Assembly (NCBI GenBank): GCA_964016885.1
Contig: OZ024753.1
Location: forward strand, 13,640,001-13,704,000
DNA length: 64,000 nt
Direction: 5' to 3'
From: Eledone cirrhosa
Taxonomy: Eukaryota
Under the pieces are notes generated by a model. The model was not told the DNA's origin and did not search any database. It worked only from the letters and a program-made list of their open reading frames with translations. A program made the position numbers and the translations under genes. This document shows, piece after piece, positions 6,942 to 56,119 of this stretch. Position 1 is the first letter of the stretch. Each line of letters begins with the position of its first letter.

Positions 6942-6977
6942 AGAATATTTTTGAAACGGCAAGTGGGTTTGAAATTA

Positions 6978-7192
6978 TTAGAAATGTAAGCTATCGCCGT
7001 ATTTTGACTAAAGAAATTAAAGAAATTATTTAGCCTGATAGTGGGGTTAAGAACCCTCGGAGAAATGGAAAAAGATGAGTATTGACGTACGTCAATACAC
7101 ATCTTTTTCCATTTCTCCGAGGGTTCTTAACCCCACTATCAGGCTAAATAATTTCTTTAATTTCTTTAGTCAAAATACGGCGATAGCTTACA

Positions 7193-7200
<8 letters not shown>
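6978..7200. repeat. Near-perfect ~220-bp palindrome between (TA)n tracts
   Basis: Arms of ~110 bp centred on GACGTACGTC (~7085-7094); mirrored ORFs in the track. Confidence 0.95.
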
Positions 7201-7261
<61 letters not shown>

Positions 7262-7660
7262 AGAAGGTAGTACAGCATAATCGAAGCTCTGGTTGTGGGC
7301 AAGCTAACGAATGCTGTCGGGAAGTGAAGTCAAAAGCACTCAATAAGGAACTTTACCTTAGAGTTATAACATTACGTTTAGACAGCTATGCAAATTGAAG
7401 CCAGCGACTGAAAAGCGAGCCGCTAGGACCAGAACAACGAAAAAAACCGACTCGGGGATATATATATATATATATATATATATAGATATATGTGTGTATA
7501 ATTAAAGAAATGACAATGTAAAAACACTATCATATTAGTATCACGCTTAGGAGGAAACACACACTCATAATCTATCTAAAGAATGGGAAATCATAAAGAA
7601 TGACTGATGTATTGATAAAATACTGTATTTTACTTCCTAGAAAATATTTTCCTATATATA

Positions 7661-7995
7661 TGGAGGCACATGGCTTAGTGGTTAGAGCATTGGCCTTGCA
7701 ATCGAAAGGTTGTGAGTTCAATTCTCAGACCGGGTGATGTTTCCTTGAGCAAGACACTTTATTTCACATTGCTCCAGTTTACTCAGCTGTAGAAATGAGA
7801 TGATAGGACTGGGGTCCATATCATTCCACTGCAAAGTGGTCGTGGAGGTGCCACGGCAAAAAATCACCCAGCACTCACTGTAAATGAGGTTGGTGTTAGG
7901 AAGGGCATCCAGCTGTAGAAATCAAGCCAGAATCAGTTCCCGTCCCACCTTTGCAAGCAGGGAAAAAGCGGACGTAAAATGATGATGATGATGAT
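7661..7995 (+). mobile_element. tRNA-SINE family B (CORE-like domain, RTE-type 3' end)
   Basis: A box TGGCTTAGTGG, B box GAGTTCAATTC, CCTTGAGCAAGACACTT core, GGAAGGGCATCCAGC, (GAT)n tail; copies at 10435-10845(-), 19874-19983(+, truncated), 44511-44815(+). Confidence 0.85.
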
Positions 7996-8189: not shown

Positions 8190-8610
8190 CATCATCATCA
8201 TCATCATCATCATCTTCGTTTAACGTCCATCTTCCACGCTAGCATGGGTTAGACGGGAGTTGTGCCACTTGAGGCAAGGTTGTCCGGGTGACCGTGTCTC
8301 GCTCATATAGGACTATCTGGCAGGCTTTCTACGGCTGGATGCCCTTCCTAACACCAACCACATTTACAGTGTAGTACTGGGAACTTTTTACCCTGTTACC
8401 TACACGGCCACATTACAGCGTGGACTGTGTTTTATTTATTTATTTATTTTTTTATCATGACACCTACATGATCTCGATCTCATTATCTCATTTATTTGGA
8501 CTGGATGTTGTGGTACCAACTTTACAGAGAGAGGGTGGTGTTGGTGGGAGGATAGGGTAGCGGTAGTGGATTGGGGTGTATATTTGGTTAGGTGCCTACT
8601 GACTGTAGGT
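8190..8610 (-). mobile_element. RTE family 2 3' UTR fragment
   Basis: Matches 41818-42200 and 35575-36170; (CAT)n on + strand. Confidence 0.8.
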
Positions 8611-19864: not shown

Positions 19865-19983
19865 ATATATAGTGAAGGCGCATGGCTTAGTGGTTAGAGC
19901 ATTGGGCTTGCAATTGAAAGGTTGTAAGTTCAATTCTCAGACCGGGTGATGTGTTGTTTCCTTGAGCAAGACACTTTATTTCA

Positions 19984-20340
19984 CATCAGATAAAATACAA
20001 AGTTTGTTTTATAAATATTGACATATCCAGGAATGAGACCTTAACGGTTCAAGTTTTACCTGGATAGGGTAAACTTGAACCAGGTAAAACTTGAACCGTT
20101 AAGGTCTCATCCCTGGATATGTCAATATTTACAAAACAAGCTTTGTATTTTATCTGATGAGAGCGTACCAAAGTTTTGGTACCCTTGAAATATATATAAT
20201 AGAATAAATATGGTTTTATAAATATAGTTTCCATTTATTAATATCATTGATATTATACTTCAGAATATCTGTAGAGTGCTTCGAAACTGTTATAAATATA
20301 TTTGTTGAATTACCAACAAATTAAATATCCCTTTGCTTAT
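19984..20340 (+). mobile_element. Hammerhead-bearing non-coding element (HH family 1) with 80-bp 5' fold-back
   Basis: 19984-20063 is the reverse complement of 20080-20159; homologous to 54220-54478, 54920-55097, 55135-55495. Confidence 0.8.
20146..20206 (+). ncRNA. Type I hammerhead ribozyme motif
   Basis: tattttat-CTGATGA-gagcgtacca aagttt tggtaccctt-GAAA-tatata-TA-atagaata; 8-bp stem I; palindromic TA stem III. Confidence 0.8.
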
Positions 20341-20520
20341 CATCATCATCATCATCGTTTAACGTCTATCTTCCATGCTAGCATGGGTTTAGATGGGAAT
20401 TGTCCCACTTGAGGCAAGATTGGTCGTCTCGCTCGTATGGAACTGTCTGGCATATATATATATATATGTCTAACCCATGCTAGCGTGGAAAATGGACGTT
20501 AAACGAAGATGATGATGATG

Positions 20521-20556
<36 letters not shown>

Positions 20557-20559
<3 letters not shown>

Positions 20560-21832
20560 GGCCTTCCTAAAGTCAATGAAAACCATGACCGCAGGAAGGC
20601 ACTTTGCTCTAGCTCCCTCTAATATCCTCCTCAGCATCAGGATGTGACTGGTGGTTGATCTACCCTCTCTGAAGCCGTTCTGGTTGTCCCTGAGCTTCTT
20701 CTCCATCTCAGGCTGGATCCTGTTAAGAATCATCCTGTTGAGGGTCTTTGCCACAAGTGACATCAGTGAGATCCCCCGGTAGTTGTTGGTGTTAGAGAGA
20801 TCTCCCTTCTTTGGCACTGGGACGATGTTACCGATCCTCCACTGATTCGGGGCAACTCCTTTCTCCAGTGCCTCGTTACAGAACCCCAGGATGATATCAT
20901 CAAAATCACACCTCTTCATCACCTCTGATGCCACTCCATCTTCTCCATGAGCCTTGCCCTCCTTGATCCTCTTCTTGGCTCTCTGAAGCTCCTCTCTGGT
21001 GAAGGGCTCTGTCTCAACATCCAGTTCCTCAAACAGCCGCCTGATCTCCCCAGTGCTCTGGGCTGTGGAGGGTGGCTCTCCTAGTAGGGTCCTAAAATGG
21101 TCTAGCCATTTCCTCTTCCTATCCTCGGGCCCCGTTCCCTGGATCTGACTCGAACACCTTCTCTTCCTCCCTGTGATCTCGTTGATCATCCAGCTCTCCT
21201 TACATCCAGATCTGTCAACCGCTCTCTCCACACTTCTGATCTTCTCTATCAGTGCCTCCTCTCTGACCTCAGTGTAAGCGGTACAGAGCTCTTCCCTCAT
21301 CACCTCCAGTCTCCATCCTCTCCTCCGTAGGATCAGCATAGAATTGGTCCCTGGCAGCTTTCAGGTGTTCTCTGGCTGCACACACTTTTGGGTTTGCAGA
21401 GCTGACGTGCTTCCCTTTGTTCTTTTTCCTCGGCACCAGGGTTTCACTTGCTTCCGCCACTGCATTGGTGAAGTGCCCGTACCTCCTCGTCACATTCTCC
21501 TCAGTCCATCCAATCTCTCTCTCCTCTCTCTCTCCTCTGACTCTCCACACAGAGCACTAAACCTGTTTCTCACTTCCACTGTGAACCTCTCCTGTAGCTT
21601 ATCATCTTCCTTGAAAGCTCCCCAGTCATAAATTGTTCTCCGGGGCTGAGCCTTGCTCTTTCTTAAGCTCACGTGGACCTCACTCATAACAAGCCGGTGG
21701 TCACTCCCCAGTGTACTGAAATAGCTGTATGGTTCCGTGTTCAGAACACTATTCTGCCACTTTTTCCTCACCAGAATGAAATCAATCTGGGACTTGGACA
21801 GGTGCATATCTGAGATGTAGGTCCACATCTTC
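20557..21832 (-). mobile_element. Inverted 5' part (EN end to RT start) of RTE-X-like LINE (family 3)
   Basis: SQIDFILVRKKW, SDHRLV, NYRGISLMS, NQNGFREGRSTTSHI, FIDFRKA. Confidence 0.9.
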
Positions 21833-22602: not shown

Positions 22603-22942
22603 ATAGGAAAAAGTATGACCCCGACGGCAGAGCTCAAGCCGTTTCGACGGCTATTTCTGGAAATAGCCGTCGAAACGGCTTGAGCTCTGCCGTCGGGGGT
22701 CATACTTTTTCCTATTTCTCACTCTACTACCCTAAGTATTGAGTACTCTGGTGCGTTATGGTCCATCTGGTTCCTTACCACAATTCCTTTGTTATTTAGC
22801 TCCTATCTCTGTAGTAGAGCACTTTCCGACTCTACCACGCCATATCCCGACTTTTCCACCCAGCTCAAGTTTCTTCACCCTAGCCCAGAATTAACCGTCG
22901 AAACGGCTTGAGCTCTGCCGTCGGGGTCATACTTGTTCCTAT
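22603..22942. mobile_element. PLE-like non-coding element in (TA)n: ~112-bp palindrome plus terminal direct repeat
   Basis: 22603-22714 palindrome; CCGTCGAAACGGCTTGAGCTCTGCCGTCGGGG repeated at ~22896-22940. Confidence 0.7.
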
Positions 22943-22980: not shown

Positions 22981-23027
<47 letters not shown>

Positions 23028-23068
23028 CGAAACATAAGTCAATTGCATGAACTCATAATCCTTTATTT

Positions 23069-23124
23069 ACTGCTATATATATTTCGATGATAGCCATTGA
23101 ATGGCTATGACCTCATCAGGCAGT
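23069..23124 (-). ncRNA. Type I hammerhead ribozyme motif
   Basis: actgc-CTGATGA-ggtcatagccatt c aatggctatcatc-GAAA-tatata-TA-gcagt. Confidence 0.8.
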
Positions 23125-23487
23125 TAGTCAGTTCTTAGATATGCCAGCTCTGTGTTTATAGTGTTGAATATATATATATTCCAAGCTGTTTATTCATATT
23201 TTTGCTGGGTTAACCAATATATTTTGCCCTATTCTTTCTATTTATTTCTTATACTCCAGTTTATTATATAGCATGTCATATATACAACATATGGTATTTT
23301 ATTTTGTAAACCAATGTTCTTATGATTATCTTCCGTATTGTATACACTCACTTCTCTGATGTGCACTACATGGAAATGGTGTGTGTATGTGTGTGTGTGT
23401 GTGTGTCTATATATTTGTGTGTGTGTGTTTATATTATGTCATCCTAATCATCATCATCATCATCAACGTTTAACGTCTACCTTCCAC

Positions 23488-23880
23488 GTTTGTGTGTGTA
23501 TATATTTGTGTATGAATGTGTATGCATATATGTATGTGTGTATGTGTGTATGTATGTGTATGCATATATGTATGTGTGTTTGTATATATGTATGTGTGTA
23601 TGTATGTATATGCATATATGTATATGTATGTGTGTGTTTGTATATATGTATGTGTATGTATGTATGTATGTATGTATGTATGTATATACATGTATGTATG
23701 TATATACATGTATGTATGTATATACATGTATGTATGTATATACATGTATATATGTATATACATGTATATATGTATATACATGTATATATGTATATACATG
23801 TGTATATATATATATATATATACATGTATATATATATATACATGTATATATATATATACATGTATATATATATATACATG

Positions 23881-23912
<32 letters not shown>

Positions 23913-24096
23913 CATATATGTATATATATATGTATATATATACATGTATATATATATGTATATATATACATGTATATATATACATATATGTATATATATA
24001 TGTATATATATACATGTATATATATATGTATATATATACATGTATATATATACATATATGTATATATATGTATATATATATACATATATATATACA
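23488..24096. repeat. TA/TG/CA microsatellite
   Basis: Low complexity; source of YIYI ORFs. Confidence 0.95.
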
Positions 24097-26769
24097 CAAA
24101 AGCCTTCCCTAGTGAGGAATGTACATCCCAACATAGCTTAGTTGTCAGCGACCTCACGGTCAGAACTAGACGAGCCCTGAAACAGAGGCCAACCTGGAGA
24201 AGAAAGATCTGGAAGCTGAAAGTCCCCTCAACCAGTAACAGATTTAAAGATATTTTACTCAACGCCTACGACAGTAAAGAAGAACAGATAGAGACATTTA
24301 ATGTAGAAGAGAACTGGGAGTTCCTAAAAAATAACTTACTAGAGGCGACGGATGAGGTTTGTGGCTGGAGTAAGACCTCAAGCAGGAGGAGAGTGACTTG
24401 GTGGTGGAACAATAAGGTAGATGAAGCAGTCAAGGCCAAGAGACAGGCATGGAAAGAATGGAAGAACGGGGGGAGCAGGGTACATTACATAGAGACCAAG
24501 AGGGAAGCTAGGCGACAAGTATACTTAGCTAGGAGGGAAGCAGAGGATAGAAAATTCAAGCATGTTTTACAACGTGAGGACCAGAAACAGGAGGTATTCA
24601 AGATTGCGAGGCAGTGTGTCAGAGATAGTTGTGATGTCATTGGAGAGAAGTGTATCCGGAATGATAAAGGTGAGCTTGCCCTCACAAGTGCTGAGAAGAA
24701 AGATGCATGGAAGAGTCATTATGATAGATTACTAAATGAGGAGAATGCATGGGAAGAAGAGACCCTACCCCACGTAGACCCTATAGAGGGACCAGCAGTA
24801 CAAGTCAGCGGCAGCGTAGTAAGTAAGGCAATCAGAGATATGAAGATAGGGAAGGCAACCGGTCCATCGGGTATAGCTGCCGAGATGCTGAAGGCATCTG
24901 GGTCTGTAGGTCACACTATAACCACACGTATCGTTAACCAGGTAATACTAGAGGGGGCCATACCAAAAGATTGGTGCAGTAGCATCATTGTCAACTGCTA
25001 CAAAGGTAAAGGCGATGCACTAGATAGAGGAAACTATAGAGGCATAAAGTTGATGGACCAGGTCATGAAAGTAACAGAAAGAGTTATAGCACAGCTGATT
25101 AGGGACCGGGTGAATATAGACGAGATGCAATTTGGGTTTGTTCCAGGGAAAGGCACCACTGATGCGCTCTTCCTTGTGAGGCAATTACAGGAAAAGTACC
25201 TAGCTAAAAGTAAGCCACTCTACTTGGCATTTGTCGACCTTGAGAAAGCCTTTGACAGAGTTCCACGTGCAGTAATCTGGTGGGCTCTTAGAAAACTAGG
25301 AGTAGATGAATGGCTTGTGAAAGCGGTACAAGCTATGTATAGGGGAGCAGTCAGCAAAGTTAGGATTGGCAATGAGTATAGCGAGGAATTTAGCGTACAG
25401 GTTGGGGTCCACCAGGGCTCTGTTCTTAGCCCTCTCCTGTTCATCATAGTCCTGCAGGCAATAACGGAGGAGTTTAAGACCGGATGCCCATGGGAACTCC
25501 TGTATGCTGATGACCTCGCACTCATAGCTGAATCTATGGTAGAACTAGAGAATAAATTCCAAACCTGGAAGCAGGGACTAGAGAGAAAGGGCCTCAAAGT
25601 CAACATGACAAAGACTAAGGTCCTTATAAGTAGACGAGAAAACAGAACCCAGATCCCCTCAGGGAAATGGCCTTGCTCAGTATGTAGGAAAGGTGTAGGT
25701 AGGAACTCCATTCTTTGCCCCAAATGCAAACAATGGGTACACAAGAGATGTAGCGGGATCTCAGGAAGCTTAATTAAGAATGTAGGATTCACATGCAGCA
25801 GCTGTGCTGAAACAGCAAGCAAACAGCCACAGGAAACAAGTACCACCAATCTCTGGGAGGGCCCTGTAGAAACAGTAGACAGCTTCTGCTACCTAGGTGA
25901 CCGAATTAGCAACGGAGGTGGGTGCTCAGAAAGTACAATAACTAGGGTAAGAACGGGATGGAAGAAGTTTAGGGAACTACTACCACTGCTAGCTGCAAAA
26001 GGCTTCTCCCTCAGAATGAAAGGCAGACTGTATGATGCGTGTATCCGAACAGCGATGTTGCATGGTAGTGAGACCTGGGCGCTGAAGGTGGAAGACTTAC
26101 GTAGATTAGAGAGAAACGAAGCCTGCATGCTCCGATGGATGTGTAACAGTAATATACGTGAACGACAAAGCATAAATGAATTGAGAGAGAGACTGAGCAT
26201 AAGAGGAATCAAATGCTGCGTGCAGGAGAGGCGGTTACGCTGGTATGGACATGTGATGCGTATGAAGGATGACAGCTGCATAAAAAGGTGCAGAGCACTA
26301 GAAGTTGATGGAAACCGCGGAGTGGGGAGACCCAAGATGACTTGGGATGAGGTGATAAAAGCCGACCTTACCCAACTACACCTCTCAAAGTCAATGACAC
26401 ACGACCGTGACTTCTGGCGTCACGCAGTAATACAGGGTACCCGACCTCCCATGGGTACATGCTGAAGCATATAAACAATATGCCCCCCCCCCCCCCCACC
26501 GCAAGGTGGTCGTGGAGGTGCCACGGCAAAAAAGCACCCAGCCCACACTGTAAAGTGGACGTGTAGGCGCCACGAAAAAGCACCCAGCACTCACTGTAAA
26601 TGAGGTTGGTGTTAGGAAGGGCATCCAGCTGTAGAAATCAAGCCAGATCAGTTCCTGTATGAGCAAGGCATGGTCAGCCGACCAGACACTGCCCACAACA
26701 GGACAACCCGTCTAACCCATGCTAGCGTGGAAGAACGGACGTAAAACGGTGATGATGATGATGATGATG

Positions 26770-41817: not shown

Positions 41818-44107
41818 CATCATCATCATCATCATCAACGTTTAACGTCCGTGTTCCACGCTTGCATGGGTTTGGACGGGGGTAGTCCCACTTGAGGCAA
41901 GAGTGATTGTCTTGCTCGCATAGGACTGTCTGGCAGGTTTTCTACAGTTGGATGCCCTTCCTAACACCAACCACATTTACAGTGTGGGTCTGGGAGGTTT
42001 TTACCGTGTTGCCTACACGGCCACATTACAGCGTGGACTGTGTGTTTTTTTGTCGTGACACCTACACGATCTCATTTGTTTCGGCCTCGATGGTGCGGCA
42101 CCAACATAACTTTACATAGAACGGGGTGGTGTGGATGGGGTGGTGGTGGTGGGACGGGGTGTATTTTGTTAGAGATGCCTACTGGCTGGAGTAGGTTTTA
42201 CTATATATTTAGGTAAGGCGGGTCTTCTCTGTTACTGAGTACCGCCAAAGGTCTCGGTCCAGTGACATTGTCTTGGAGAGGTGTAAGTGTGTGATGTCGG
42301 AGTTTATCAGCTCGTCCCAGGTTTTTCTAGGTCTGCCTATTCCGTGACTACCGTCTATCTTTATTGCCCTGCACTTTGTTATACAGCTATCGACTTTCAT
42401 GCGCATCACGTGTCCATACCAACGTAGCCTTCTCTCGAGTAAACATCTGATCCCTCTTATCTCTAATTTTTTCCTTAGTTCGTTTATGCTTTGCCGTTCA
42501 CGTATATTACTGTTACACATCCAGCGGAGCATGCAAGCTTCGTTCCTCTCTAGTCTGCGTATATCCTCTGCACACAATGCCCAGGTCTCACTGCCATGCA
42601 GCATTGCTGTTCGTATGCAGGCATCGTACAACCTGCCTTTCATTTTTAGGGAGAACCCTTTAGCAGCTAATAGTGGTATAAGCTCTCTGAACTTTTTCCA
42701 ACCAGTTCTGACTCTAGCTACAGTACTTTCAGAGCACCCTCCCCCACTGCTGATTTTATCGCCCAGGTAACGGAAGCTGTCCACTATTTCTATAGAACCC
42801 TCTGCGCAATTGAAAGAGCTAGTATTTTGTGGGCACTTGCTGCTACTTATTGCACCAGAGCACCGGCCACATGTAAAATCTATGTTCTTAGTTAGCTTAC
42901 CTGTGATCCCACTACATCTTTTATGCAGCCATACTTTGCATTTAGGACATAAAATGGAGTTTCTACCTACGCCTTTCCTACACACCGAGCACGACCATTT
43001 CCCAGAAGGGACCGCCGCCTTGTTTTCTTTCCTACAAACTAGTACTTTGGTCTTAGCCAGGTTAATTTTAAGTCCTTTTGACTCTAGGCCGTGCTTCCAT
43101 GTTTGGAATTTCTTCTCTAGCTCGGCCATTGATTCCGCTATGAGTGTCAGGTCGTCTGCGTATAGGAGTTCCCATGGGCAGCCTGTCTTGAACTCCTCTG
43201 TTATAGCCTGAAGGGCAATAATAAATAGTAGTGGGCTGAGAACAGAGCCCTGATGGACGCCAACTTTTACGCTAAACTCTTCACTATATTCGTTGTTAAT
43301 TCTAACCTTGCTGACTGTTTCTTTATACATGGCTTGTATAGCCCTCACAAGCCATTCGTCAACGCCTAGTTTTCTAAGAGCCCACCAGATAATGGAGCGG
43401 GGGACTCTGTCGAAGGCTTTCTCCAAGTCGACAAAAGCTAAGTAGAGGGGTTTACCTTTAGCTAGGTACTTCTCCTGTAGTTGTCGTACTATGAAAAGAG
43501 CGTCTGTGGTACTTTTGCCTGACACAAACCCGAACTGCATTTCATCTAGGTCAATTCTCTCTCTGATTAGTTGCGCTATTACTTTTTCCGTGACCTTCAT
43601 GACCTGGTCGATTAATTTAATGCCTCTATAGTTACTCCTATCTAGGGCGTCTCCTTTACCCTTATAACAGTTAACGATGATGCTGCTATGCCAGTCCTTC
43701 GGAACAACCCCATTCTGTACGACTTGGTTAACTATGCGGGTGACCATGGTGTGTCCCACCGTGCCAGATGCCTTCAGCATCTCAGCAACTATTTCCGAAG
43801 GCCCAGCCGCCTTACCCGTCTTCATATCCTTGATTGCCTTACTTATTATACTCCCCTCGACTAACACTGCTGGTCCCTCTATTGGGTCGATATGGGGGAG
43901 ACTGTCTTTCTCCCATTTATTCTCCTCATTTAGTAGCCTTTCATAGTGACACTTCCAAGCTACCTTCTTATCAGCGTCGGTGATGGCAAGTGTGCCATCG
44001 TCGTTTAGTACACACTTCTCCCCGACAATATCACGGTTTTCCTTGACGCATTGCCTAGCAATCCTGAACACCTCACGTTTTTGGTCATCGCGTTGTAGAA
44101 CATGCTT
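41818..44107 (-). mobile_element. 5'-truncated RTE family 2 LINE (second subfamily), open ORF 42209-44107
   Basis: Same motifs as the 24097 copy, including the PHD-like insert; clearly diverged at DNA level. Confidence 0.95.
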
Positions 44108-44165
44108 GTATATATATATACATACATACATACATGTGTATATATATATACATACATACATGTAC

Positions 44166-44198
<33 letters not shown>

Positions 44199-44253
44199 AA
44201 TATATGTATGTGTGTGTACGTATATATTATGAGGGGATTAGTACGTATATATT

Positions 44254-44840: not shown

Positions 44841-44844
<4 letters not shown>

Positions 44845-45195
44845 AGGCAAAAGAGAATCAGTGTTGCGATGAAAGGAATCTATTGGACATATTACAATTG
44901 TTTCTTGGGTGACCAGCTCGAGGCAAGATCGATGTGGTGATCAAACCTGAGGAAAATCTGATTCGTAGAATCGATACGTATCCGAGGACCTTGCGATTTT
45001 CAGAGTCAGGTTTGCTCACCTTATCGATCATGCCTCGAGCTGGTTGCCTGAGAAACAATTGTAATATGTCCAATAGATTCCTTTTGTCGCAACACTGATT
45101 CTCTTTTTTCTGTGATATCATACTCTGCTCTATGAGGGCATAGAGTGCTCATACGACCTACCGCATACGGACGCTTTAAACATCCAAGACCAATT
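44841..45195. mobile_element. Fold-back non-coding element in (TA)n
   Basis: 44841-44950 inverted against 45005-45115; GAAACAATTGTA half-hammerhead; downstream pseudoknot. Confidence 0.65.
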
Positions 45196-51672: not shown

Positions 51673-52588
<916 letters not shown>

Positions 52589-52609: not shown

Positions 52610-54219
52610 TATATATAAACACACACACACACATATATAAACACACACACATATATAAACACACACACATATATAAACACACAGACATATGTAAACACAC
52701 AGACATATGTAAACACACAGACATATGTAAACACACAGACATATGTAAACACACAGACATATGTAAACACAGACATATGTAAACACAGACATATGTAAAC
52801 ACAGACATATGTAAACACAGACATATGTAAACATAGACATATGTAAACACAGACATATGTAAACACAGACATATGTAAACACAGACATATGTAAACACAG
52901 ACATATGTAAACACAGACATATGTAAACACAGACATATGTAAACACACAGGCATATGTAAACACACAGGCATATGTAAACACACAGGCATATGTAAACAC
53001 ACAGGCATATGTAAACACACAGGCATATGTAAACACACAGGCATATGTAAACACACAGGCATATGTAAACACACAGGCATATGTAAACACACAGGCATAT
53101 GTAAACACACAGGCATATGTAAACACACAGGCATATGTAAACACACAGGCATATGTAAACACACAGGCATATGTAAACACACAGGCATATGTAAACACAC
53201 AGGCATATGTAAACACACAGGCATATGTAAACACACAGGCATATGTAAACACACAGGCATATGTAAACACACAGGCATATGTAAACACACAGGCATATGT
53301 AAACACACAGGCATATGTAAACACACAGGCATATGTAAACACACAGGCATATGTAAACACACAGGCATATGTAAACACACAGGCATATGTAAACACACAG
53401 GCATATGTAAACACACAGGCATATGTAAACACACAGGCATATGTAAACACACAGGCATATGTAAACACACAGGCATATGTAAACACACAGGCATATGTAA
53501 ACACACAGGCATATGTAAACACACAGGCATATGTAAACACACAGGCATATGTAAACACACAGGCATATGTAAACACACAGGCATATGTAAACACACAGGC
53601 ATATGTAAACACACAGGCATATGTAAACACACAGGCATATGTAAACACACAGGCATATGTAAACACACAGACATATGTAAACACACAGACATATGTAAAC
53701 ACACAGACATATGTAAACACACAGACATATGTAAACACACAGACATATGTAAACACACAGACATATGTAAACACACAGACATATGTAAACACACAGACAT
53801 ATGTAAACACACAGACATATGTAAACACACAGACATATGTAAACACACAGACATATGTAAACACACAGACATATGTAAACACACAGACATATGTAAACAC
53901 ACAGACATATGTAAACACACAGACATATGTAAACACACAGACATATGTAAACACACAGACATATGTAAACACACAGACATATGTAAACACACAGACATAT
54001 GTAAACACACAGACATATGTAAACACACAGACATATGTAAACACACAGACATATGTAAACACACAGACATATGTAAACACACAGACATATGTAAACACAA
54101 ACACATATGTAAACACAAACACATATGTAAACACAAACACATATGTAAACACAAACACATATGTAAACACAAACACATATGTAAACACAAACACATATGT
54201 AAACACAAACACATATAAA
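52610..54219. repeat. 16/18-bp minisatellite GTAAACACACAGRCATAT in homogeneous blocks
   Basis: Blocks of GAC(18), GAC(16), GGC(18), GAC(18), AAAC(18). Confidence 0.97.
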
Positions 54220-54478
54220 CAACTTGAACCATTAAGATCTTGTTCCTGGATATGTCACTATTTATGAAACAAACTTTGTATTTTATCTGATGAGAACGTA
54301 CCAAAGTTTTGGTACCCTTGAAATATATATAATAGAATAAATATGGTTTTATAAATATAGTTTCCATTTATTAATATCATTGATATTATACTCCAGAAAG
54401 CTTGTGGAGTGCTTTGAATCAGTTATAAATATATATATTTGTTGAATTACCAACAAATTAAATATCCCTTTGCTTATA
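54220..54478 (+). mobile_element. HH family 1 copy
   Basis: Closely matches 20088-20340, same 3' end CCCTTTGCTTAT. Confidence 0.85.
54279..54339 (+). ncRNA. Type I hammerhead motif (HH family 1)
   Basis: Same fold as 20146-20206. Confidence 0.8.
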
Positions 54479-54512
54479 TATATATATATATATATAGTTT
54501 TAATATAGATGA

Positions 54513-54561
54513 GATTCTACAGGACTAGAACTGTTTCATTCTTGAGAAATCATCAGGAATC
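54513..54561 (-). ncRNA. Complete type I hammerhead motif in a 125-bp palindrome (54496-54620)
   Basis: gattc-CTGATGA-t-ttct-ca-agaa-t-GAAA-cag-ttctagtc-ctg-TA-gaatc; GUA site; damaged mirror copy at 54562-54605. Confidence 0.8.
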
Positions 54562-54693
54562 AGATTCTTGATGATTCCTCAACAGTTCTAGTCCTGTAGA
54601 ATCTCATCTATATTAAAACTTTTATACTCTGCTATGTATTGAGTACCTTACTTACTGTGGTTACCTCCGATTCAACCCGGAATAACTTACCTA

Positions 54694-54734
<41 letters not shown>

Positions 54735-54986
54735 ACTAGAAATTGATTGACACACACATATATATATATATATAAAATAAACATATGAAACAAACACAGG
54801 GAATAATTTGTAAAGTGTGTAATCTTTGAGCATATTCTCCAGTGGATATGGCGCATGTCTCTCGGACATGACACCCTTAATTTAATTTTGGATATATATA
54901 TATATATATATATATATATCCAGTGAATTTCCAACCGATAAGGTATGATTTTCATGGGTATGTCTTTATTTATAAAACAAACTTTG

Positions 54987-55051
54987 TATTTTATCTGATG
55001 AAAGCGTACCAATGTTGTCTTGGTTACCCTTGAAATATATATAATAAAATA
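54987..55051 (+). ncRNA. Type I hammerhead motif (HH family 1, copy 3)
   Basis: Stem I tattttat/ataaaata fully Watson-Crick; longer loop II. Confidence 0.75.
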
Positions 55052-55093
55052 AATATGGTTTTATAAATATAGTTTCCATTTATTTAATATCAT

Positions 55094-55138
<45 letters not shown>

Positions 55139-55295
55139 TTTTTTCTTTTTCTTTATCTCCGTCTTTTTCTAATTGTGCTTAACACTATGACTTATTAAAA
55201 CAATATAAACAATTCATTATCCAGACAGCCTCCAAAAGTAATGGTTGTATTTTAAAAGGGTACGTCAAAGCTATTTGTAAAACTGTTATATATTG

Positions 55296-55360
55296 TATTT
55301 TGTCTGATGAAGGCATACCATAATTTAATATGGTATCCCTGAAATATGTATAATGAAATA
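55296..55360 (+). ncRNA. Type I hammerhead motif (HH family 1, diverged copy 4)
   Basis: Stem II ataccata/tatggtat versus gtacca/tggtac (compensatory change); core intact. Confidence 0.78.
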
Positions 55361-56119
55361 AAGATGGTTTTATAAATATAGTTTCCATTTATTAATATCG
55401 TATATCTACTCCAAAAACTTGTCGAGTGCTTTATATCAGTTATAAAAATATTTACTTGTTGTATCCCAACAACTTTAAATAGAACTTTTGCATATATATC
55501 TATATATATATATAAATGAAAGGTATAGAAATTGTTTTAGCGAGAAGCTAACAGTATTCTATAACATATATGCGACTATGTCGTCAAGATGGGAAAAATA
55601 ATTAACGTAAGATGTAGGAAAAATAATTCAAACTCATCTCAAAAGAGAATCAGGATATAAATTCATCCACAGAATTTAGTGAAATCCAGGGAAAAATCCA
55701 TAGACCCTTAACTCGTGATAAAATAAAGTTTAAAACACCTATCCTTCAATTTGGAAAAACATCAAATGCTCTGTATAGTCTTATATATATATATATATAT
55801 ATTTATCTGTCATCCAGGGACAACAAATATTTCAGCAGTATCAATTCAACATCATCATCATCATTGTTGTCACCATCATCATGATCGCTGTAGGCCAGCA
55901 TCCTTACCATCATCATCATCATCATCATCACAGGCCAGCAGCCTTCTTAGCCACCACCACCCTGCCCTACAGCCCTGTGGTGATGATGTTCAGTGTTAGC
56001 AGCTATCTGACATTGACCTATAAGAAACACATCTGTTCACTGACCTCACTCATCACAAGATGTGTTCTTCCTTAACCCACCCTGCTATTTCTGGTGGGTG
56101 TAGGGCAGTGGGTGGAAGA

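Follow-up and report, generated by a model that had tools for sequence, protein, structure and literature searches.

The window (the whole stretch of 64,000 nucleotides analysed here) contains four copies of a repeat with a type I hammerhead fold, and these copies are probably the non-coding 3' ends, made up of a pseudo-LTR and an optional tail, of a TA-targeting Penelope-like retroelement, for whose parent the Hydra type is our best guess. The features that favour a Penelope-like origin are a hammerhead near the 3' end, the occurrence of two 3' ends, and an inverted copy adjacent to the 5' end, whose outer end is clipped at 20 kb. The window itself is animal DNA rich in repeats: a SINE, frames for LINE-type reverse transcriptase (RT) and numerous runs of (TA)n and (CAT)n, a set that may be of octopus type.

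The hammerhead of the first copy (20126..20224, + strand) was identified with a descriptor scan and with RNAalifold, which recovered from the four copies stem I, stem II and a previously unnoticed 12-bp distal stem I (20126-20137/20213-20224) closing an internal loop. Within this outer helix lie an 8-bp stem I (20146-20153/20199-20206) present in all four copies, the core CTGATGA (20154-20160), stem II with a C-C mismatch (20161-20186), GAAA (20187-20190), and a palindromic helix III (20190-20197). The second copy is a long form (54221..54474, +; core 54287, tail hairpin 54390, then (TA)n), the third a short form (54920..55098, +; core 54995) with a (TA)n run on each side, and the fourth a diverged long form (55134..55492, +; core 55304, tail hairpin 55408) with 78-81% identity to the other three over the ribozyme; positions 55134-55217 may or may not belong to this last copy. 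Overall, (TA)n lies directly at three of the four 3' ends and at two of the four 5' ends. The copy at 54.2 kb adjoins an 18-bp minisatellite of 1.6 kb (52623-54216).

An earlier note on this DNA had described four copies that keep CUGAUGA and GAAA, and all four cores, each on the + strand and each with stem II, GAAA, TA and the 8-bp stem I, bear this out. The pairing of stem I is also kept as described, its variation being restricted to G-U/A-U swaps in three pairs, and the predicted AUA cut site near 20198 falls after A20198, the NUH triplet (20196-20198) being AUA in all four copies. The G-C to A-U covariation reported for stem II is present at 20165/20182 and has its source in the one diverged copy; indeed, stem II has three pairs changed on both sides, all owed to the 55.2-kb copy, a result matched by 7 of 500 shuffles in a control that ignores relatedness. 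In the same copy all 11 stem substitutions keep pairing, as do 25 of 100,000 random placements. When the 31 pairs are considered in the four copies (124 cells), 96% are paired, against 37-52% in slid registers, and the five unpaired cells comprise three beside a bulge in the 54.9-kb copy and two that reflect single-copy decay, at 20132 in the 20-kb copy and at the equivalent of 20163 in the 54.2-kb copy. None of 13 core positions varies in the four copies, as against 29 of 43 positions in the upstream region. The proposal of selection on ribozyme structure is supported between subfamilies by the paired substitutions and the invariant core; selection on the fold would have acted on master elements, while individual copies, the one at 20 kb included, decay. 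Four sequences are too few for a covariation test of R-scape grade.

In addition, we searched for the pattern core-spacer-GAAA-TATRTATA, accepting matches with a stem I of at least 5 bp and a paired stem II. Both stems were present in 5/5 matches in the window, the fifth belonging to another family at 23119, compared with 0/100 matches in viral contigs and 0/5 matches from 100 Markov windows of 64 kb. A local Rfam scan of 20060-20336 returned no hammerhead family at E values up to 10, and for the whole window the best 150 of 342 rows were all microsatellite noise. The G10.1-C11.1 pair, which is usual although not universal, is absent from the family and replaced by G-U or A-U. Two other interpretations of the region were rejected: a second, degenerate hammerhead at 20270-20290, since this stretch is the tail hairpin described below, and the idea that the ribozyme sits within an intron (GT after CCAG, AG at 20262), since neither site is kept in all copies.

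Parts of this stretch are contained in ten public runs with seven organism labels; three of these runs, with shares of at most 0.13, were not counted as evidence. Contigs of four runs were aligned to 20045-20365, bearing in mind that contigs show presence, not absence, and the numbers placed (8,215 for run X1, 244 for X4, 6 for X6 and 246 for X7) also count contigs from the (CAT)n flank and do not measure copy number. The family is abundant in public runs. In X1 no core position carries a variant at 3% or more. Pairing is kept by the common variants at 20202 (G to A, 70%), 20161 (G to A, 48%) and 20194 (A to G, 17%), whereas a pair is lost with G to T at 20161 (9%) and with A to T at 20162 (3%). 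For 20166 T to C (13%) no partner change was listed, and the loose-end consensus has, by eye, a matching G at 20182 beside a bulge. A 28-nt box (20209-20236) and the C-C mismatch in stem II (20164/20183) are invariant in all four window copies, and coverage in each of the four aligned runs is greatest over the box; both may possibly serve protein or tertiary contacts.

The repeat ends in one of two ways. The earlier note had seen a similar 3' end in three copies, abutting (TA)n or (CAT)n, and three copies do end near 20337, but the (CAT)n is not a target sequence, as it is the tail of a separate 115-nt repeat present at three other places in the window. This neighbour, (GAT)n-tailed as read here, adjoins the long end of the first copy (20339..20452, -) and is 81-84% identical to the sequences at 8200, 35571 and 41822. 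The fourth copy to be considered, at 54.9 kb, stops at the equivalent of 20251, which is a second, recurrent 3' end and not a random one. In copy 1 the corresponding zone lies at 20236..20251, a zone that (TA)n follows in other copies, and in the public runs joints or loose ends fall at 20236-20245 and at 20333-20334, with TA runs after each. The two ends are thus located ~40-53 and ~139 nt past the predicted cut.

The extra 86 nt of the long form open with a hairpin that is found in the long form only and has the order RCTY, upper stem and loop, returning stem, a 2-nt bulge, GAGY and RCY (20257..20280 in copy 1, +), followed by the remaining tail to the long 3' end (20281..20338, +), where run X7 has loose ends at 20333/20334 and then TA runs. 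It is present in 3/3 long copies, in each case matched by no more than 1 in 2,000 shuffles, and in 0/98 viral controls. A loose descriptor of the hairpin fits 13 places in the window where ~1 is expected: four in the SINE repeat, one in a LINE frame and eight in short elements flanked by TA, which belong to five unrelated families. Among 16 unselected RCTY..GAGY-RCY matches, nine have an upper stem of at least 3 bp and a 2-nt bulge, and other bulge sizes account for 1, 0, 0 and 0 matches. Seven of the eight hairpins in TA-flanked elements lie at most 230 nt from a (TA)4 run at the element's end (background 19%), the exception being the 20-kb copy, where the (TA)4 run is found beyond the inserted neighbour. 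The folding energies of single hairpins are unremarkable (z -0.3 to -1.9), so that the evidence for the motif is covariation and not stability. The four SINE places (6058, 10544, 26606, 44717) correspond to an internal 49-nt repeat with a 6-bp upper stem, the fit of which could equally be chance or a related signal.

The same hairpin was seen by eye in four of six published Hydra consensi in the supplement of PMC8557442, namely after the ribozyme in Hydra-2_Amil, -2_Ajap and -1_Crog (with one mismatch) and twice at the start of -1_Ajap; in the sequences of that supplement it was not seen by eye in Hydra-1_Amil or -1_Obim. The first pair of the hairpin is G-C in these consensi and A-U in most window copies. 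Six 9-mers compared with the same supplement gave seven matches, four in Hydra termini and three inside other sequences.

Several TA-flanked elements of other families resemble the repeat in part. Another hammerhead family is represented by a single window copy (23022-23130, -; core 23119); it ends ~50 nt past the cut at (TA)n and has the same GAAA-TATATA-TA helix III with unrelated stems and the canonical G10.1-C11.1 pair. A third family forms a head-to-head fold-back at 54496-54690, with (TA)n on both sides, an intact hammerhead core on the left arm (- strand) that is deleted on the right, and a tail hairpin (54626) confined to the right arm. The TA-flanked mini-element at 22605-22940 consists of an inverted short arm followed by a partial tandem of 224 nt in which two tail hairpins (22721 and 22799) are spaced 78 nt apart, like the pair at the start of the published Hydra-1_Ajap consensus; no hammerhead core was found in it, and it is a candidate non-autonomous Penelope-type element. 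Another TA-flanked fold-back (44842-45195) carries a tail hairpin on its right arm at 45122; it also has a GAAA with a palindrome after it but lacks a clean CUGANGA. Finally, a TA-flanked 200-nt insert (7260-7457, -) has a tail hairpin at 7364 and no ribozyme, and adjoins a further TA-flanked fold-back (6942-7198).

Helix III had been described as TATATA, which holds for three copies but not for the one at 55.3 kb, where it reads TATGTA, and the helix is better defined as the octamer 20190-20197, including A15.1 and U16.1. This octamer is an AU-only palindrome with a monomer pair probability of ~0.001 in folding, and forcing 1-2 of its base pairs in the monomer costs 3.5-4.6 kcal/mol; as a self-duplex it is predicted to form 8 bp at -3.2 kcal/mol. 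Pairing of the core is incomplete in the monomer fold, and stem I is marginal in full-length folds (probability 0-0.38) and falls to 0 once the inverted arm is included, so that the 20-kb copy would be silent in read-through RNA. No cleavage is predicted for the ribozyme as a monomer; it would cut only when two units dimerise through the AU palindrome or when the protein of the element assists. Unconstrained dimer folds of the four copies gave no double hammerhead; such a fold, with an 8-bp helix III, was obtained only for the 23119 family. Known motifs with a palindromic helix III are described in PMC4209133 as poor cutters that act in vitro only as dimers, and protein-assisted cleavage and internal initiation on unprocessed RNA are described in PMC11167929.

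At 20 kb the repeat is preceded by an inverted arm (19984..20066, -), which runs from TATCCAGG to CTGATG and is clipped at the ribozyme core. The two arms (19981-20063 and 20080-20162) are 95% complementary, both begin a few bases from TATCCAGG, and they are joined through a turn (20066..20081, +) that is a 16-nt slipped duplicate of 20082-20097. They differ at 3 of 80 sites (20111, 20132 and 20140), with the common letter of the family on the left arm in each case; the differences are therefore private changes of the right arm, which indicates that the fold-back is real and aged. An assembly artefact was rejected, as these differences accord with family variants. On the outer side the arm meets a SINE-like repeat (19876..19986, +), a neighbour and not part of the element, which has what we take to be a tRNA-like head, although ARAGORN found no tRNA in it. 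Only the 5' part of this SINE is present, ending at CAT, and it is 92-94% identical to copies at 7664, 44513 and 10810 that run on for more than 150 nt. The claim that the arm stops at CATCAG and truncates the SINE through microhomology is supported in so far as the exact match ends at 19984 and CAT (19984-19986) is common to the SINE, but 3 nt is a modest overlap.

The position of this end raises the question of whether the ribozyme itself sets it, by cleavage or by a programmed stop at the core. The left arm does end exactly between the core and stem II, and the core is incompletely paired in the monomer, but a connection between fold-back and ribozyme, as the earlier note implied it, is not supported: the arm stops 39 nt before the cut site, on its upstream side, so that cleavage does not explain the end, and all copies extend across the cut, none of them starting at AUA. 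It is moreover a single case. Three other fold-backs, chosen for adjoining hairpin matches from 24 inverted-repeat rows, have (TA)n at the left outer end, which is where their short ends lie, and a tail hairpin 5-6 nt past the right arm, the one-sided-tail arrangement drawn for Penelope-like insertions in fig. 2 of PMC8557442. By this rule the left arm at 20 kb would be expected to reach the equivalent of 20251 and a TA run, whereas ~92 nt of the arm, the TA run and the 3' part of the SINE are all missing. The simplest reading, and in our view the likely one, is a single later deletion joined at CAT, which would account for all three losses at once. As an alternative, which we regard as plausible without favouring it, synthesis of the second strand was primed directly at the CUGAUG core, which is poorly paired, whereas a fold-back end set by the ribozyme is very improbable.

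The 5' ends of the family are less variable than random truncation would make them, and this counts against the preferred reading: both 20-kb arms, the 54.9-kb copy and the 54.2-kb copy start within ~12 nt of one another, i.e. at three of the four loci. Such ends would be expected of a free-standing, ORF-less mini-element of ~175 or 260 nt whose 5' end is fixed at TATCCAGG, which depends on a Penelope-type protein for mobilisation in trans and constitutes a family of its own. This explanation would also agree with the retention of a 5' hairpin (CCAGG ... CCTGG; 20080..20119 in copy 1, +, by folding), whose folding z is -3.8 in the 54.9-kb copy and only -1.2 in the 20-kb copy, with the 224-nt partial-tandem mini-element that carries the same tail hairpin at 22.6-22.9 kb, and with ~8 X1 contigs that cross the fold-back centre with five different spacer lengths, a hint that head-to-head joins recur at the 5' end. 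However, the 55.2-kb copy has 84 extra bases between (TA)n and TATCC, and the depth in X1 drops ~100-fold from 20144 to 20078, although divergence between subfamilies also explains the latter. Truncations could, in addition, be clustered by TAT microhomology with the target, and an autonomous element with internal initiation near the mRNA 5' end would produce the same fixed ends. We consider a free-standing mini-element rather unlikely.

The origin of the repeats as 3' ends of a Penelope-like element would involve the following steps. The GIY-YIG nuclease of the element would nick (TA)n, and the reverse transcriptase would begin within an uncut RNA, at either of the two sites that flank the tail hairpin, and copy towards the 5' end; uncut RNA is the likely template because the copies span the cut site. 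Copying would stop mostly near TATCCAGG, ~75 nt upstream of the core, which may represent the transcription start or a hot spot of TA microhomology. Priming from both nicked strands would then give two head-to-head copies, one short-ended and one tailed.

A different route to small non-coding units is that of the non-LTR retrozymes, in which tandem 260-nt units with dimeric hammerheads give rise to circular RNA that reinserts as monomers. The size of the unit, the type I hammerhead and the palindromic helix III fit the retrozymes described in PMC7229834, and solo monomers are described as common in such families in 10.64898/2026.07.22.740005. Against this, the window has no head-to-tail array, no joint from the long end to the 5' start is among those listed for the four runs (whose contigs show presence, not absence), the copies are not circularly permuted, and two 3' ends together with head-to-head arms are signatures of Penelope-like elements, which makes retrozyme monomers an improbable source. 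A partial tandem, i.e. a true pLTR pair, was likewise found neither in the four copies nor among the joints listed for the public runs.

A further point that stands against a Penelope-like element is that none of the copies comes with an RT or GIY-YIG gene. The earlier note had proposed to look for an upstream RT/GIY-YIG ORF in longer copies, and no longer copy was found in three collections, namely metagenome contigs, viral contigs and prokaryote genomes. The 150 longest of 305 non-repetitive frames of the window include no Penelope-type RT/GIY-YIG frame, and a search of its six frames for Hydra motifs (RWK, DKT, CxCX5C linker, no CCHH) gave two unconvincing matches far from the copies. The window copies are too short to hold such an ORF, and none was present when they were translated. 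In the Hydra consensi of the PMC8557442 supplement the ribozyme is located in the non-coding 3' region, so that short copies would hold no ORF. Motifs of the family were not found in that supplement, where the sequences are line-wrapped and a match can be missed, nor in the supplementary file of PMC13282606, which has no repeat library, and a literature search found no paper naming this repeat family or the bulged tail hairpin. Mobile-element frames in the window include LINE-type RT frames, of which two carry a PHD finger, as well as an HTH fragment of Mos1 type (23448-26462, 42212-44251, 20473-21360 and 52196-52588).

Taken together, these features could tentatively be combined into a bolder and rather unlikely proposal, in which the family would be a very abundant, ORF-less mini-Penelope with fixed ends and three RNA modules, namely the 5' hairpin, a dimer-dependent AU-palindrome hammerhead and the bulged tail hairpin. 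The RCTY-bulge-GAGY-RCY hairpin, found in at least five unrelated families of the window, would then be a general docking signal of Hydra-type reverse transcriptases that sets both start sites, and the unpaired core would be a possible second priming site. The practical gain lies in the tail hairpin, a covarying motif of 24-33 nt that flags TA-targeting Penelope-type ends without an ORF and would let unclassified repeats be assigned, and it is a candidate RNA signal for how such elements choose two internal start sites. As a ribozyme, the repeat is a new family of a known kind, one more of the class described in 2014, and its selected fold and copies spanning the cut raise again, in a second lineage, the question of what purpose such ribozymes serve.

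Covariation, a palindromic helix III, and solo and inverted copies have all been described for Penelope-like elements (PMC4209133, PMC8557442). The metazoan pLTR hammerheads reported by Cervera and De la Pena (2014, PMC4209133) are, as there described, of type I with a long helix II, a small palindromic helix III and a predicted dimer, and number in the thousands, mostly as solo motifs, with some pairs on opposite strands and with families that show compensatory changes, all of which is similar to the present case. In contrast to those motifs, the family described here has R10.1-U11.1, lacking the bulged base and the G-C pair that are usual there; it combines an AU-only octamer for helix III and the triplet AUA with a distal stem I of 12 bp and a C-C mismatch in stem II.

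The likeness to the Hydra clade, in the descriptions given by Craig et al. (2021, PMC8557442), extends to the (TA)n target, a hammerhead located tens to ~130 nt before the 3' end, short and long ends, presence in Octopus, and the bulged tail hairpin, which is visible by eye in the consensi and is not named in the cited passages of that paper. The T before GAA is shared with 18 of 26 Hydra rows there, many of which also lack G10.1-C11.1. On the other hand, helix III is AC...GU in 26/26 of these rows and AU...AU in the present family, the published ribozyme of Hydra-1_Obim is a different sequence, the tail measures ~86 nt here against the 30-40 bp described, and no ORF was found with the copies described here. 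Insertion at (TA)n also occurs in Naiad and Neptune and is therefore not diagnostic of the Hydra clade. In the part of the Octopus repeat annotation cited here, Penelope-like elements make up 6.83% of the genome and ribozymes are unmentioned (PMC13282606).

Animal non-LTR retrozymes, according to the descriptions in PMC7229834 and 10.64898/2026.07.22.740005, are also small and non-coding, with a type I hammerhead and an origin from the pLTR of Penelope-like elements, whereas the present repeats are dispersed and TA-flanked, with two ends and inverted arms, and no tandem arrays were seen. The Poseidon element PAc of Anolis (Frangieh et al. 2024, PMC11167929) differs in that its ORF is described as beginning in stem II, while no ORF follows the ribozyme here, but in the same account it shares with the present family two 3' ends flanking a stem-loop, copies that span the ribozyme cut, AT-rich targets, and priming from both strands.
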